From Spirochaetia bacterium (GTDB lineage: Bacteria; Spirochaetota; Spirochaetia; DSM-16054; Sediminispirochaetaceae), in NCBI GenBank assembly GCA_034520965.1, contig JAXHMY010000002.1:320001-384000 (forward strand): a stretch of 64,000 bases of DNA, written 5' to 3'. A program made the translations under genes and the position numbers. The notes below the pieces were generated by a model. That model ran no database searches and was not told the origin of the DNA. It saw nothing but the letters and a program-made list of their open reading frames with translations. Each line of letters opens with the position of its first letter. Position 1 is the first letter of the stretch. Below, piece after piece: positions 31,853 through 39,484 of the stretch.

Positions 31853-33682
31853 GTGAACATGCAAGAACAAGCCCCCCTGCTGACCGAGGTAAGCGGGGGG
31901 ACTTCGATTGTATTTAAAAATAAGGAACTCTACAGCCGCAGTTCACCTCGCACGAGGGCCGAAGAACGGGCGGCGGCCTTTGAACTTGAAACCCACACAC
32001 TTTATATACTGGCCTCGCCACTGCTGTGGTACGGGGTCGCTGTGCTGCTTAAAAAGCTCCCGCCAAGCTCACACATTATCGCTGTTGAACAAGAGCCCCA
32101 ACTTGCCGCACTTAGCATCTCGCACCAGCCTCTTGAACTCAGCCGGAACGAGCAGCTGGACATAGGATTTTATCCGGAGGGAGGGCTTGAGGCTGAGGTT
32201 CCCGCTGGTAACAATCCTGAATCCGGCAGCGCTGAAACAGAAGGCCATGCAACTAGCAGCGCTGAAACCAAGGCTCCTGAATCCGGCGCCGCCGGAGACA
32301 TTTTTAAGTCGATACCGGCACTGGTTAAAAAACTCGGTATTGAACGCTTCCGCCGGGTGCGTTTGCTAACCCTGAACGGGGGGTATCGCCTGAACAGCCG
32401 CCGCTACACAGAGCTGGTACAACTTTTAGAAGAGGAGGTTCAGCAGTTCTGGCATAACAAGTATACCCTCATGCATATGCTGCCTCTCTGGATAAAGAAT
32501 ATTTTGCGCAACCTTGCCCTGTGTACCTTCCCGGCAGGAGCCTCGGACACGGTGCCCGAAACAAAACTATCTCACCTGGAAAGCTGTCCTCGGTTTGGTT
32601 TGCCGAAGACCTCCCTTCCGGTACTGGTTGCCGGAGCAGGCCCCAGCCTCGACACGCACATCGACTTTATCCGCCGCTATCGTGATACTATATATCTATT
32701 AGCCGTGGACACCGCCTACTCTGTGCTTCTGCAGCACGGTATTAAGCCCGACATGGTGGTGGTGCAGGAGTCTCAGTTCTACAATCTGTACGACTTCATT
32801 TACCAGCCCCGGATCGAAGCCGACATTCTGGCGGATATCAGCAGCTACCCCCAGGTCATTCGTCTCGGCGCCGGCAACATCTATTTATACGCCACCGAGT
32901 TTGTCCATACTCAGCTATTCACCCGTTTGCAAAAGGTCTCACTGCTGCCGCCCCGGATTCCCCCGCTGGGATCGGTTGGTACCACCGCTGTCCATGCCGC
33001 CCTCTCTATCACCGACTCAACGGTAATTCTGGCGGGCATCGATTTCGCCTTTCCCCCGGGCCAGACCCATGCCCGCGGCGCCCCCCGCCATCAGCTGAAC
33101 CTGCAGCACAGCCACCGCTTTCTGGGAATCGAGGATATGTGGCCTCGCACCACCAAGGGTGTCACACGCACTCCAGACGCCTCGGATGCCTTGGGAGTTC
33201 CACTGCGTACCACCCCAAGCCTAAGGCGCTATGCAGATAATTTTACGCGTGTATTTCATTCTTTGGATCGGATGCTCTTGTTAAAGCCCCGGGGCTTACC
33301 CTTAGGTATACCGGAGCTCACGCAAGCTGAACTTGCCCCTTATCTCTCGTCGGTAGAAAAACGGTTAATGCCCCATCCTTCTCCATCCCTGCCCGCCATG
33401 GGCGATAGTGAGGCTGTTGAGGGCTTTCTACAGCGCGAACAGAAGCTGCTGCATTCAATTTACACCCAAGGATTAGCCTTTCTTGAGGGACGGCTGTCGG
33501 AAGCGGAACTTTCGAAGCTGTCCTTGGATATACACCGCTGCGAGTATCTGTTTCTGCATTTCCCTGAAACAGGGCCAAGCCTGCGCAAGCTGGAGCCGGC
33601 CATGATAAAACGGATAATGGTTACTGCCGGCCACTACATTCGGGTGATCGACGAGGCGCTGGAGCTTATTCCTCGCTCTTAA
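31853..33682 (+). CDS. MAF_flag10/DUF115 (motility-associated factor-like) protein
   Basis: [23 protein letters not shown] and LAGIDFAF motifs. Confidence 0.8.
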
Positions 33683-35468
33683 GCACCGAGACAAAGGCCG
33701 ACTGGGGCAGCTCTACATTTCCAACCATCTTCATCCGCTTTTTACCCTCTTTCTGCTTTTCCAATAGCTTGCGCTTACGGCTGATATCTCCGCCGTAGCA
33801 CTTGGAGGTTACATCTTTGCGGAGGGCATTGATAGTCTCCCGGGCTATAACGGTATTCCCAATAGTTCCCTGCAGAGGAATTTTGAACTGCTGCCGGGGT
33901 ATCTCGTCCTTCAGTTTTCGGCAAATAGTACGGGCCCGGGAAACAGCATTATCCTTATGCACCAGCTGGCTCAAGGCATCCACCGGTTCGCCGTTTACCA
34001 GAATATCGAGTTTCACCAGCTCGGTTCGCTTATAAGGTCCGATTTCGTAATCGAAGGAGGCAAAGCCCCGGCTCACCGATTTAAGCTTGTCGTAAAAGTC
34101 GAAGAGTACCTCCGCCAGAGGCATCTCGTAGGTTACCTCAACCCGCTTTTCATCCAGATAGTTCATAGCCTTCTGAATGCCCCGTTTCTCCAGACAAATC
34201 TGAATTATGTTGCCCAGATATTCGGCGGGAGTGATAATGGCTGCGTCAATGTAGGGCTCTTCGGCATACTCAACCTTGGTGCTGTCCGGATACTCAAGGG
34301 GATTGTCCACGTCGATTACCTCGCCGCTGTTTCAGGTGAACCTTGTAGCGGACCGAAGGAGCGGTGAGAATAATTGAAAGGTCAAACTCCCGTTCAATCC
34401 GCTCCTGCACTACTTCCAGGTGCAGCAGCCCTAAAAAGCCGCAGCGAAAGCCGAAACCCAGGGCCGCGGAGGAATCCTTCTCGTAAATAAGGGAGGCGTC
34501 GTTCAGTTTCAGCTTATCGATGGCCGTTCGCAGCTCTTCGTAGTCGTTGGTGTCAATCGGATAAATGGAGGAGAAAACCACCGGTTTGACCTCTTTGAAG
34601 CCCTTCTGCGGTTCCGCACAGGGGTGCTTGTCGTTGGTCACGGTGTCACCAATACGAACATCTTCAATGTTTTTTATGCCGGCAATCAGATAGCCCACCT
34701 GTCCGGCATTAAGATTTTCACCCTTCTCCAGTCCCAGCCTGAAAATTCCGGTCTCTTCAATGGTATAGGTGGTGTTGTTCCACCACAGGCGAATCACGTC
34801 GCCGGCCTTCATAGTCCCTTCAAACACACGGACGTGAATAATTACCCCGCGGTAGGCATCATACTTGGAGTCGAATATCAGGGCTTTTAGGGGCTGGTCG
34901 TCGGTTCCGGAGGGGGCCGGTATATGATGAACAAGAGCCTCCAGCAGGTCATTGACCCCCTCCCCTGATTTTGCCGATACCAGCACCGCATCATCCGGGT
35001 CCAGCCCCAGGTCGTGCTCGATTTCTCGTTTTACCATCTCAATATCGGCACTGGGCAGGTCGATTTTATTAATCACCGGTATTATTTCCAGGTCTAGTTC
35101 AACGGCCATATACATATTGGCAAAGGTCTGCGCCTCAACCCCCTGGCTGGCGTCAATCAACAGCAGCGCCCCCTCGCAGGAGGAGATAGCCCGGGAAACT
35201 TCGTAGGCAAAATCAACATGTCCCGGAGTATCAACCAGGTTCAGTTCGTAGATATTCCCGTCATCCGCCTCATAGGGCATGGTAATTGCCTGGGATTTGA
35301 TGGTAATACCCCGCTCACGTTCAATATCCATATTATCGAGATATTGCTCCTTAAAATTACGGGCCTCAACTATCTTAGCCTTTTCGATAAACCTATCGGC
35401 TAGGGTAGATTTCCCATGGTCTATATGGGCTATTATGCAGAAGTTGCGGATAAATTCTTTAGGTGTAT
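33666..35468 (-). CDS. lepA: Elongation factor 4 LepA, 3' exon (first 4 nt ATGA at 37342-37339; frameshift ~34331)
   Basis: [32 protein letters not shown] and [25 protein letters not shown] motifs. Confidence 0.95.
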
Positions 35469-37338
35469 GTAGAGTAGACATACTATCGCCTTCCTTCATT
35501 AAGGGGGTTACGATAGCATGCCCCTCCCAGAACCGTACGTGCGCAACTAACGCATACGGCTCCTAGCACTAAACATTCGACCATTGCCAGATGTCTTTGC
35601 AAATTCTGCGGTCTTGGTATTAATTTCCATATCTTTTCAAACGTCTCCCAATTTATCTTGTGCTTCTGACCTCTCCGCCTTAGAGCCTTATACAGCGTGT
35701 ATCTGATGTATTTATAGAACTTGTACAGCCCTATTCAGATTTCCGTTGACCCCATAGTAATTGTAGTGCCCAACCAGTTTCCGGCTTAGTGCTCTCACAA
35801 TCTCCATGACAGGTCGATGCATATTCCATCTAATCCACTGCTTTGCGCTCTCGCGTTTAGCCTTCAGCTTCTTCTTGCTAGTGAGGTGCAGAACTGTGTA
35901 CTTACCAGTCCTTGTACTGGCATTTCACGTGGGTGAATCCAGAGATCAAATGTCTCCTTGGTTCCTTTGTACCTTCCAAATGGAATAATCCTTGTCTTCT
36001 CTTCGGCCACCGTTAGCTTGAACTTTGCAAGCCTTTTAAGCATCACCTCGTAGAATCTTTTCGCATCATCCTCGTACTGGAACAATACCACATAGTCATC
36101 CGCATAACGGTATAAGTATGCCTCACCCCTCAAACACCTTTTCACTACCTTCTCAAACCACAAGTCGAGTACGTAATGAAGATAGACGTTAGCCAGCACC
36201 GGCGAAATAAGCCCTCCTTGCGGAGTCCCCTTGTCGCTGTCGCTGACGTTCCCATTCTCCATGATCCCCGCCTTGAGAAATCTTACTACATAACGGATGA
36301 AATTCTTGTCCTGTATATCGTTCTCAAGAAACTTCACCAGCCATTCGTGGTCGACATTGTCAAAGAACCCTTTGATGTCGGCATCAAGAATATAATTTAC
36401 CTTCTTAGTCATGATCGTTTGGTTTATCTCCCGTATTACATCATGACAATTCCGATTCGGCCTGAACCCGTAGGAACAGTCCAGAAACCTCGGCTCGTAT
36501 ATCTCAGTCAGCACCTTCGCCATTATTCCCTGTACGAGTTTGTCCTCATACGCCGGGATTCCCAGCGGTCGTACCGTGCCATCCGTCTTGGGTATGTATG
36601 TTCTTCTCACCGCCTGCGGTCTGTAGCTGAAGGATTTCATCCGTCCAAGCAATGCATCCACATGCTCTTCCAGTCCGGACTCATAGCTCTCCTTCGTCGC
36701 TCCGTCTATGCCTGCGGCTTTTCCTCTGACCTGCGCCCGATGCTCTGCCTTCAGATTCTCCCTGTTGACGTAGTGCATGAGCGTCTGCATCTTTGCGTGA
36801 CTCTCCGACAACCTCCTCAACTCCCCATAGCTATTTTCCACTCTTTCAGAACCTCCAGTGTTCCTGGTGTTGGCCACAAGAAATACGTTTAATGCCCAGA
36901 CCCCTTCGCTCCACCGACTTTCACCGGTTTCATCGCTACTATGAGTCTGTCCGATTGCTGATGCCCCATACAGGTTTCTTGACTCCTCGCCTTTACGTCC
37001 CCTCTTAGTCCAACGGACAGGACATCAGCCCTCCCAGGTACGCTTGATCTACCTTGTGTGCTCGCCATGCTCTCAGACCCCGTTGGGTTCTCTGCACTCT
37101 CGCCTTTTTCCGAGCGCTTCTTGCTGGTTGCTGTCATATGAAAAACATCACCACCCAATCTTTATACTAACGAGGCTCAATCACGTTCAACCTTTCGGCT
37201 TATGGCTCTCACACTCCTTTGCCTACGCTTAAACCTCACCTCACGGCTTCGGCTCCAAGGCTAAGTACCGGCTGTTGGCTAGACTTTACCGGACAGGGTG
37301 TCTCACCCTGCTATATATCAAACGCCGAACTGGCGCAC
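35469..37338 (-). mobile_element. Group II intron (1870 nt) inserted after nt 4 of lepA
   Basis: 5' GTGCG at 37338; domain V GAGCCGTATGCG...CACGTACGGTTC; domain VI with bulged A ending CTACTCTAC at 35469; RT ORF inside; exon ligation restores ATG AAT ACA CCT. Confidence 0.92.
35569..36841 (-). CDS. ltrA: Group II intron reverse transcriptase/maturase, no endonuclease domain (3' frameshifts)
   Basis: RPLGIP, SYGFRP, DADIKGFFD, GTPQGG and YADD motifs; X domain GHYNYYGV in a shifted frame; GTG 36841 with GGAGGT RBS. Confidence 0.9.
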
Positions 37339-37349
37339 TCATTGGGTTT

Positions 37350-37378
37350 ACTATAGCTTAATATTCGATCTTCATCAA
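37350..37378 (-). promoter_or_regulatory. lepA promoter (leaderless spacing)
   Basis: TTGATG-17-TATAGT, 7 nt before ATG 37342; no SD sequence. Confidence 0.6.
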
Positions 37379-37395
37379 CAAAGCCGGCCCATTAA

Positions 37396-37533
37396 CAGCG
37401 ATTCTCAATTTGGAAGTCTTCTGACTTCCAAATTGAATTCACATGCAAATGCTTGAAATTTTTATATATCTTAACTTTGGAGGCATTCTCAATTTGGATA
37501 GCGTAATTACACTATCCAAATTGAGAATTGCTG
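37396..37533. mobile_element. MITE copy 2 (diverged)
   Basis: 19-bp TIR cagcgattctcaatttgga/tccaaattgagaattgctg (1 mismatch); perfect 9-bp duplication gcccattaa. Confidence 0.85.
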
Positions 37534-37552
37534 GCCCATTAAAGAAAGAGTG

Positions 37553-39484
37553 TCAGTCTGTATAGGTGTCATCAAGCACCTCGCGTACCACTTTGACAAA
37601 AACTTCGGGTGAGAAAGGTTTGGATATAAAGGGAAATTCAAAATCCGACCCCAAATCAGACTCGCTGCCCTCTGTCTGCGCGGAGTTGTGCTTATGAGGG
37701 TATCCCGACATGTAGATAACCTTGGTGCTGGGGCGTAGTTCGAGAAAATGTTTCGAAAGCTCTTCTCCGCCCATTCGCGGCATAACCAAATCAGTAACCA
37801 GCACATCAAACTTATGCTCCTCGCTCCTGGCCAACTCTAAAGCTGTTTCAGGGCCGTCCGCTAAATACACGGTATATCCGTACAACTTCAAAATACGCTC
37901 AACGAGGTTTCGAAGACTCTTTTCGTCTTCCACCACTAGTACCGTTTCCGTTCCGGAGTAAGAGGGTTCCATACCTCTCTTACGCGTAGGGGCTTTCTCG
38001 GTACTGCGATACAAGGGCAAAAGGATCCAAAAGGTCGAGCCCTCATTGGGCTCCGTTTCAACCTGCAGATACCCATTGCTCTGCTTTACGATTCCGTACA
38101 CGGTTGAGAGACCGAGTCCGGTGCCCTTCTCTTCCGACTTAGTAGTAAAAAAAGGTTCAAATATCATCTTAAGCATATGAGACTCAATTCCCACCCCAGT
38201 ATCTCGTACCGCGGCGCATACATAATTTCCCGGAGGTACTTTTCCCATCGGTGAGGGTTCCGGACTATCAACTTGATAATTCGTAGTTCGGATTGTGATG
38301 CGCCCCCCCTGGGCCATAGCATCCCGGGCATTTACAATCAAATTCATCAGCACCTGCTCAATTTGTCCGGGATCTACCCATACTGTATCCGGATCAGCGC
38401 TTAAGTTAAGGTACATTCCAAATTCTTCGGTAACCAAACGGCGCATCATTTTTTCAAGATTATGAATCAGTTCGTTCATATGAACTTGTTTTGGTTTTAG
38501 AATCTGCCTGCGACTGAAGGCCAGCAGCTGCCGAGTAAGGGTCGAAGCCCGTTTGGCAGCCTCTTGGATGCCCGACACCTCATTTTCAATAGCCGTATCC
38601 TGCTTCACAAGCTTTTCTTGAACAATAGTACTGTAGCCAAGAATGACCGTGAGGATATTGTTAAAGTCGTGGGCTACCCCGCCCGCAAGCCGGCCAACTG
38701 CCTCCAGTTTTTGCGCCTGCCGCAGCTGCTGTTCGAGGTTTTTACGGGTGCTAATATCTATAAGGTAGCCGTTTATCTCTGTAATAGCGTCGCTTTCATC
38801 GGTATCTGCAACAACATTAGCCAGCAAATTCAATTTACTGCCGTCGGCGCGCAGCAAATCCAGCTCATGCAGAACTAAACGCTTATGCTGCTTAAGCTGC
38901 TTCCAGAAATCAGCTGCCTGACTTTCATCGGGAAAGCGGGAATTTAAGTAAGTACCCTCGACTTCAGCCGCATTTTTAAACCCGAAATAATCTACAAAGG
39001 AGTGATTACAGGCTAAAAAAACGCCCTGAGCATCGGCTACAAAATCTGCGGATACATCTTCCTCAAACAGCCGGCGGTAACGCTCCTCGCTTTCCTGTAG
39101 TTGAGTTTCAAGTTTGTGACGAAACAGGGCCATTTCGATATTAGTACGCAGTTCCCTCTCTTCGAAGGGTTTTATAATATAACCGAAGGGTTCAATGAAC
39201 TTAGCCCGTTCGATCGTTTTTTCGTCGGCATAAGCGGTAAGTATGATAACCGGCACACGGAATTGTTCACGAATTATCTGAGCAGCTTCGATACCATCCA
39301 TCTTACCCTGAAGACGGATGTCCATCAGTACTAAATCGGGTGCTTCAGTTTTGAATTGAGAAATAGCTTCTTCACCCGACGCATGGGAGCCTACTACTTT
39401 GTATCCGAAGGACTCTAAATGCCGACGAATATCAAGAGCTACAACCCCTTCGTCTTCTACAATTTGTACTTTAAGCTGGGCCAT
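37553..39484 (-). CDS. Hybrid histidine kinase REC-PAS-HisKA-HATPase-REC
   Basis: VEDE/LMDI receiver, AHDFNN, GTGLGL, C-terminal receiver. Confidence 0.92.
   Translation of the reverse strand: MAQLKVQIVEDEGVVALDIRRHLESFGYKVVGSHASGEEAISQFKTEAPDLVLMDIRLQGKMDGIEAAQIIREQFRVPVIILTAYADEKTIERAKFIEPFGYIIKPFEERELRTNIEMALFRHKLETQLQESEERYRRLFEEDVSADFVADAQGVFLACNHSFVDYFGFKNAAEVEGTYLNSRFPDESQAADFWKQLKQHKRLVLHELDLLRADGSKLNLLANVVADTDESDAITEINGYLIDISTRKNLEQQLRQAQKLEAVGRLAGGVAHDFNNILTVILGYSTIVQEKLVKQDTAIENEVSGIQEAAKRASTLTRQLLAFSRRQILKPKQVHMNELIHNLEKMMRRLVTEEFGMYLNLSADPDTVWVDPGQIEQVLMNLIVNARDAMAQGGRITIRTTNYQVDSPEPSPMGKVPPGNYVCAAVRDTGVGIESHMLKMIFEPFFTTKSEEKGTGLGLSTVYGIVKQSNGYLQVETEPNEGSTFWILLPLYRSTEKAPTRKRGMEPSYSGTETVLVVEDEKSLRNLVERILKLYGYTVYLADGPETALELARSEEHKFDVLVTDLVMPRMGGEELSKHFLELRPSTKVIYMSGYPHKHNSAQTEGSESDLGSDFEFPFISKPFSPEVFVKVVREVLDDTYTD

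Follow-up and report, generated by a model that had tools for sequence, protein, structure and literature searches.

How can a housekeeping gene tolerate a mobile intron that separates its start codon from the rest of its reading frame? Splicing of group II introns is poor in bacteria, where these elements mostly stay out of housekeeping genes, and on the minus strand of the 64,000-nucleotide stretch of spirochaete DNA analyzed here (the window) a group II intron is placed one base past the start codon of lepA (after ATGA, 37342-37339), with the remaining lepA downstream. Our answer, drawn from sequence comparisons with related introns, is that a Shine-Dalgarno (SD)-like sequence and an in-frame ATG close to the intron's 3' end are probably real initiation signals, selected as a replacement start for lepA.

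The intron runs from 37338 (GTGCG) to 35469 (CTCTAC), and its 1870 nt are delimited by Rfam matches (RF02005 and RF00029), three genomic copies, and other runs in which exactly 1870 nt are skipped, with the head-to-tail joints described below as further support. It has the GUGYG 5' end, AY 3' end, domain V catalytic triad, and bulged A in domain VI that characterize group II introns. All features described here lie on the minus strand. The 5' exon sequence ATGA (37339..37342), which comprises the native lepA start codon and one further base, is IBS1 and probably the entire transcribed 5' exon. It probably pairs with an EBS1 core, UCAU (37138..37141), as supported by covariation across 97 sites, and a candidate EBS2 loop (UUAGUAUA, 37163..37170) would be complementary to TATA-x-T-A-A of the -10 region. 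Domain IV encodes a reverse transcriptase (RT)/maturase (35569..36877; TIGR04416 at 312.5 bits, cut-off 300) with no space for an endonuclease domain. Domain V (35530..35562) has an AGC triad and a 5-nt loop, and the extended domain VI (35469..35529), the branch-point helix, is 61 nt long including the linker, with the branch-point A at 35475. The lepA (EF-4) 3' exon occupies 33666..35468 (TIGR01393 above cut-off; LepA_C). Four frameshifting indel sites (35608-35943) interrupt the RT/maturase in the window, and one extra base near 34322-34330, not present in L082, L083, or X16-X18, splits the lepA ORF. The RT/maturase frame is intact in the C1 and G078 copies, and the intact ORF stops just past domain X, 103 nt before the intron end. 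Because the RT and lepA indels are missing from other copies or alleles and from most short-read contigs, they are likely assembly errors; decay of this intron copy may be an alternative source.

Within domain VI, the SD-like sequence AAGGAAGG (35489..35496), which pairs with the 16S tail of the genome itself at -9.8 kcal/mol, is followed by the spacer CGATAGT (35488-35482) and by an ATG (35479..35481) that lies 13 nt from the 3' end (phase 1) and is in frame with lepA; the intron then ends in CTCTAC at 35469. An earlier sequence-only reading had pointed out this ATG and SD-like sequence in an extended domain VI, and the boundaries and translation agree with it, except that the spacer it gave as 8 nt is 7 nt. 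It had also noted a second, upstream in-frame ATG (35497..35499). That ATG exists, but we rejected it as a start: it has no SD (anti-SD energy of only -1.1 kcal/mol) and is missing in L001 and L124, and so is unlikely to matter. A pyrimidine tract, CCCCCUU (35501..35507), is the predicted partner of the SD in the splicing fold or of the domain VI 5' arm in an alternative fold. Spliced lepA reads MNTPKEF, the same as or similar to what intronless alleles of the genus encode.

The consequences of the insertion depend on how lepA is normally expressed, and the sequence upstream suggests that it is probably leaderless. The predicted promoter has the layout TTGATG-17-TATAGT-7-ATG, with a -35-like hexamer at 37373..37378 (9 of 12 matches overall, with the 17-nt spacer) and a -10 box at 37350..37355 that is likely also IBS2 in DNA, and upstream of the native ATG there is no SD (+0.4 kcal/mol). 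We examined 11 intronless lepA alleles from related genomes, and in 10 of them TATAGT precedes the ATG by a few bases, in most cases with a TTGA-type hexamer some 17 nt further upstream; in L082-L089 this hexamer is at the same place as in the window. Across the 2534 ORFs of the window genome (G000), -10-like hexamers are most frequent 6 nt upstream of first ATGs (81 vs about 43 elsewhere), which suggests that this genome has a few dozen leaderless genes; 52 sites in it fit the intron target pattern and open an ORF of at least 100 amino acids. If lepA is leaderless, its transcribed 5' exon would be about 4 nt long and the unspliced RNA would lose its sole start signal after an 18-codon frame, since the frame of the native host ATG terminates in the intron after 18 codons. 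This early stop also led us to reject the host ATG as a driver of RT translation here. The sequence-only reading had overlooked both the probably leaderless state of lepA and the lineage's habit, described below, of inserting just behind -10 boxes. Just upstream of the -35 hexamer there is also a 160-nt element (37383-37542) with near-direct 13-nt end repeats and nested inverted repeats, which is absent from relatives and looks like a small mobile repeat.

Two kinds of observation bear on whether the intron and its relatives move and splice: the three insertion sites in one genome and the head-to-tail joints in RNA contigs from relatives. The three copies in the window genome each follow TATAGT-N6/7-ATGA, in lepA, in a LuxR-family response regulator gene, and at a site within a coding region in another frame. 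The third copy (G000:C3, 54398-59859), out of frame in that coding region, contains a 3.6-kb IS66-like insertion, the transposase of which is partly duplicated. Genome G078 has two near-identical copies, and loose contig ends add two sites (X17 and X15) where a -10-like hexamer and ATGA are 6 nt apart. When 401 genomes of the phylum were searched by pattern, this domain VI type turned up in G000 and G078 only, and the viral contigs searched yielded none. G078 also contains ten further domain V matches (L205-L214), which reveal another multicopy group II intron there. Precise head-to-tail joints occur in two of four RNA runs (X16 and X19, which bear two study codes from the same year and habitat) and in none of four DNA runs of close relatives, a distribution consistent with excised intron circles; the runs were available as contigs, which carry no information on starts, strand, or levels. 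An intron-less lepA joint was considered as proof of splicing and rejected: DNA runs X1, X9, and X15 carry it too, so it shows an empty lepA allele. One X1 contig crosses the lepA 3' junction with 30 exon bases, one short of our bridging rule. Double junctions were seen at the 3' end of L124, where the intron end is followed by 7 nt ending in ATGA and then a second intron start, and at the 5' end of L181, where a second intron start abuts an intron end with 0 nt between; these may be tandem copies, circles, or assembly loops.

Placement behind a -10 box recurs among the relatives. We gathered 191 loci, 127 of them with a 5' end, and kept the 97 distinct sites that passed cut-offs of 48% identity and 60 nt of flank. 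At 61 of the 97, a TAnnnT hexamer with at least 4 of 6 matches to TATAAT lies 8-14 nt before the junction, an interval picked after viewing the data, with a peak at 10 nt (27 sites); the background frequency in more distant upstream sequence is 9.4%, and local shuffles reach no more than 28 sites. The extended TGn form is present at 39/97 sites, compared with a background of 0.7%, and enrichment of a -35 hexamer is modest (14/61 vs 10%). When one site is counted per intron-encoded protein (IEP) cluster, 20 of 44 have a -10 box, and -10 targeting is therefore a feature of a large part of the lineage and not of all of it. With sigma-70 promoter spacing, a junction 10 nt from the -10 box is some 3-5 nt past the usual point of transcription initiation. 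Across the 97 sites EBS1 covaries with the last 4-6 exon bases (score 12.1 vs 8.2 permuted). For the candidate EBS2 loop, the preference for its own site over others is slight (10.95 vs 9.93, sd 0.21), and TATA-like EBS2 loops accompany -10 sites in 51/62 cases compared with 8/33 elsewhere, for an EBS2 pattern that was set post hoc, after the data had been viewed, and with two misaligned loci dropped. Pairing of EBS1 with AUGA and of EBS2 with the -10 box in DNA would steer the intron to transcript starts. Seven introns (L046, L072-L074, L016, L161, and L162) have neither an SD module nor a -10 box and sit in GC-rich, repeat-like or leader-like non-coding targets, a different target habit within the same family.

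An intron inserted at a transcript start would cut off host initiation signals, and the domain VI module may have been selected to offset this cost. We compared 84 distinct sites for which both intron ends were available, after manual relabelling of L047 and L003, and the comparison suggests that the relatives mostly carry whichever start signals their insertion removes. Type I introns, with an SD and an ATG 13 nt from the end, follow ATGN at 7/7 sites, of which four open long host ORFs, one reaches a contig end, and two (the window genome's own C3 and L094) are not gene starts. Type II introns have an SD and end in ATG, and all six follow ATG. Type III introns (37 sites) have an SD and then GUCGAG, which is able to pair with a terminal CUCGAC; 28 of them lie between a host SD and a start located 2-11 nt into exon 2, seven have no assigned target type, and two retain the host SD. 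With the short, SD-less domain VI of type IV, the start region is uncut at 26 of 32 sites, two of the remainder following an SD and four following ATGN. The last two of the 84 sites have other domain VI designs. The domain VI classes are partly defined by the SD pattern, and the phase match is independent of that definition. Counting one site per IEP cluster, which hides some exceptions, gives 23/6 vs 1/10 at 85% identity (p = 9e-5) and 10/0 vs 0/5 at 75%. Domain VI thus matches the signals removed, and with such introns the interrupted gene can likely be translated even from unspliced RNA.

Among the exceptions are L017, L141, L156, and L157, which are inserted behind ATGN and whose short domain VI has no module; the three of these sites that were scanned are IS200, IS5-like, and IS66 transposase genes, and start rescue may not be selected in such targets. 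L002/L126, an 82% sister of the window intron, follows ATGA with a long domain VI that has no SD-ATG, and L066 has a short domain VI and is placed after an SD. The type I design is shared by the spirochaete clade, L199 (on another branch), and L101 and L105, which belong to a distant clade (44-46% identity, outside the 84-site table) and which, inserted after ATGA, have AAGGAG and an in-frame ATG at -13; this recurrence may reflect separate origins or domain exchange. Conservation in related introns, one of the checks proposed with the sequence-only reading, thus came out in its favor, the SD-ATG being kept in the closest relatives, recurring in separate branches, and standing in a phase that fits each target. 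Its central claim, that the intron supplies a replacement initiation site, gains partial support from the shared SD-ATG and the fit between phase and insertion. Two further observations concern intron 3' ends. Seven introns (L013, L014, L131, L140, L143, L148, and L177) end in ATG and not in AY and are inserted directly after ATG, and L037, whose 5' exon is missing, has (with a 3' end near 1302) an SD and, 31 nt from the end and in phase 1, an ATG that opens a 510-amino-acid ORF.

Whether the start would be used routinely depends on the fold of domain VI. The most serious competitor to a regulated switch accepts the module as a real start selected in the lineage and holds that it is mostly silent here, a leaky backup used, for example, after 5' splice site cleavage or misfolding; we consider this possible but rather unlikely. 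In its favor, opening the region from the SD to AUG+12 in the window costs 16.7 kcal/mol, above what SD pairing returns, which argues against efficient initiation at equilibrium, and the 16 kcal/mol gap between the folds here exceeds that of most SD-plus-hairpin relatives (roughly 7-15 kcal/mol in the seven examined). Base pairing of both the SD and the ATG had been proposed from the sequence alone, and the predicted domain VI fold (-27.3 kcal/mol) bears this out fully for the ATG but for only 5 of the 8 SD bases. Constrained folds show that the SD-pairing tract can instead pair with the domain VI 5' arm and the domain V-VI linker, at -11.3 kcal/mol here, and this hairpin, which is 5' of the SD, would form first, before the SD is transcribed, which counts against a merely leaky start. 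Folding predicts an alternative hairpin of this kind, having 5 or more arm pairs, in all 54 type III introns, 42 of which beat shuffles (p <= 0.05), and in all seven type I introns, where the comparison with shuffles is weak (one of seven beats them), again as the leaky-backup account would have it. Set against this, such a hairpin is also predicted in L101 and L105, where it beats shuffles (p = 0.03 and 0.003) and is the minimum-energy fold in L105. Type II introns, in which most of domain VI is loose in any case, show the hairpin weakly or not at all. The tract keeps step with the linker, differing where GUG in the linker is replaced by GGG (type I) or UAG (L131), a correspondence scored in the best-fitting register and hence biased. 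In type III, the 3' hairpin would also reduce the SD-start distance. A kinetic switch thus seems plausible for the lineage, on the basis of predicted folds, and the case for an SD-freeing fold in the window's own intron is weak; as for the fold-dependent switch proposed earlier, the predicted fold fares well in the SD-plus-hairpin relatives and poorly in the type to which the lepA intron belongs. We also considered translational coupling through the RT frame running across domains V-VI and rejected it, because this arrangement is found only in the frameshifted copy of the window and the RT of intact copies stops 97-114 nt before the intron end.

It is less likely still that the SD-like and ATG letters are unused by-products of domain VI structure and that LepA comes from spliced RNA alone. 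The ATG does lie inside the 13-bp stem of the -27.3 kcal/mol helix, and 166 of 3000 shuffles of inner domain VI (5.5%) produce a comparable arrangement, an in-phase ATG preceded by an SD that pairs at -6 kcal/mol or better, so the single lepA instance is only suggestive and the support for the replacement start is drawn from related introns. The head-to-tail joints suggest that relatives splice, and introns that cut after the ATG without the module exist; both fit a by-product. A structural by-product leaves unexplained, however, why it is the 3' strand that is purine-rich (anti-SD energy averaging -8.3 to -9.2 kcal/mol, compared with -1.2 to -2.0 kcal/mol for the 5' half), why the ATG position tracks the target phase (13 vs 3 nt from the end), why there is no intron ATG where the host ATG remains in exon 2, and why the design recurs in separate branches. 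Finally, we find it very improbable that the SD-AUG serves the intron itself (precursor protection, delivery, or splicing tuning) with host rescue incidental, since this leaves the exact host-frame match at different target phases without a reason, even though ribosome association protects Ll.LtrB RNA (PMC3851717) and ribosome occupancy of intron sequence can block group I intron splicing (PMC3073962), as the available portions of these papers describe.

In the replacement-start reading that we prefer, the intron sits four bases into the probably leaderless lepA transcript and its domain VI SD and in-frame ATG would serve as a start, with unspliced RNA yielding LepA with three extra residues and splicing restoring the native leaderless mRNA. 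During transcription, the domain VI 5' arm is predicted to pair first with the pyrimidine tract, leaving the SD free for a ribosome, and refolding into the branch helix would then conceal the SD-AUG and permit splicing. Extended to the lineage, this would make it a widespread endonuclease-free group that homes to transcription start sites through pairing with the -10 box and with the beginning of the mRNA, with domain VI as a two-state switch and its module retuned several times, a wider picture that we put forward tentatively. The retuned versions it would comprise, an SD with a spacer-shortening hairpin, an SD with a terminal AUG, and an SD with an AUG one base out of phase, are proposed with the same reserve. 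If this is true, a lineage living on transcript starts gains expression from host promoters, the built-in start would explain why it is tolerated there, and domain VI gains a second job, in translation. Such introns would offer a direct test of splicing and ribosome loading competing on one RNA and possible tools for non-disruptive insertion.

In the literature, mostly papers accessible without subscription, neither -10 targeting nor domain VI initiation signals turned up, and Michel et al. 2007 may mention some. The nearest precedent in location is the IIB1 start/stop-codon lineage (Avi.groEL type), which, in the portions of the source available, inserts at or beside the start codon of housekeeping genes, supplies a substitute stop at groEL, and has a targeting mechanism called unknown (PMC12584367). 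The lepA intron resembles these in its insertion at the initiation codon (ATGA|). It differs in two defining features, having no 300-700 nt 5'-subterminal insertion in domain I (the Rfam D1 model begins 36 nt from the intron 5' end, and the ORF begins near nt 460) and no CL1 protein with a C-terminal endonuclease, and the accessible parts of PMC12584367 do not mention a domain VI SD-ATG or -10 pairing. The Clostridium tetani intron C.te.I1, as far as the available text describes it, is ORF-less and alternatively spliced, has annotated start codons in domains 5/6 that splicing removes, and leaves most of its transcript unspliced, and its downstream ORFs are described as expressed via fusion to the 5' exon (PMC3919590). 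It is like the lepA intron in having start codons near the intron 3' end and unlike it in that the downstream ORFs are not started inside the intron, and this expression by exon fusion counts against the replacement-start reading. For the type III relatives there is a parallel in T4 genes 25 and 38, in which a hairpin between the SD and the start codon shortens their spacing (PMC3014915, from the part available), as the hairpin between GUCGAG and the intron end is predicted to do. Unlike the hairpin of the phage genes, that of type III lies within a mobile intron and is incompatible with the branch helix; the window intron has no such hairpin.

By protein and structure, our best guess is that the lepA intron belongs to class E, an assignment made by features shared with class F. 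Class E and F introns are described, in the available parts of the papers, as endonuclease-free, with a 5-nt domain V loop and an EBS2-IBS2 pairing dispensable for splicing (PMC3753933), and circles are reported for one member (PMC3753933, PMC3552965); promoter targeting and domain VI initiation signals are not mentioned in those parts of either paper. The lepA intron shares with both classes the lack of an endonuclease domain and the 5-nt domain V loop, and its 4-nt transcribed exon would fit an EBS2-IBS2 pairing that splicing can do without. The references g1, g2, and g3 are excluded, being only 28-34% identical and branching apart. In target choice the closest comparison is with class C (IIC) introns, which insert after intrinsic terminators or at attC sites according to the available portion of a 2015 review that names only three specificities, homing sites, terminators, and attC (PMC4424553). 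As in class C, the EBS1-IBS1 pairing is short and the target is a gene-expression signal, not one homing site. Unlike class C, the lepA intron has an AGC triad, not CGC, there are no terminator-like sites upstream of it (37300-37600), and its target is the start of a transcript (-10 box, SD, or ATG), apparently read by EBS2, which, if true, would add a fourth targeting rule to those three.
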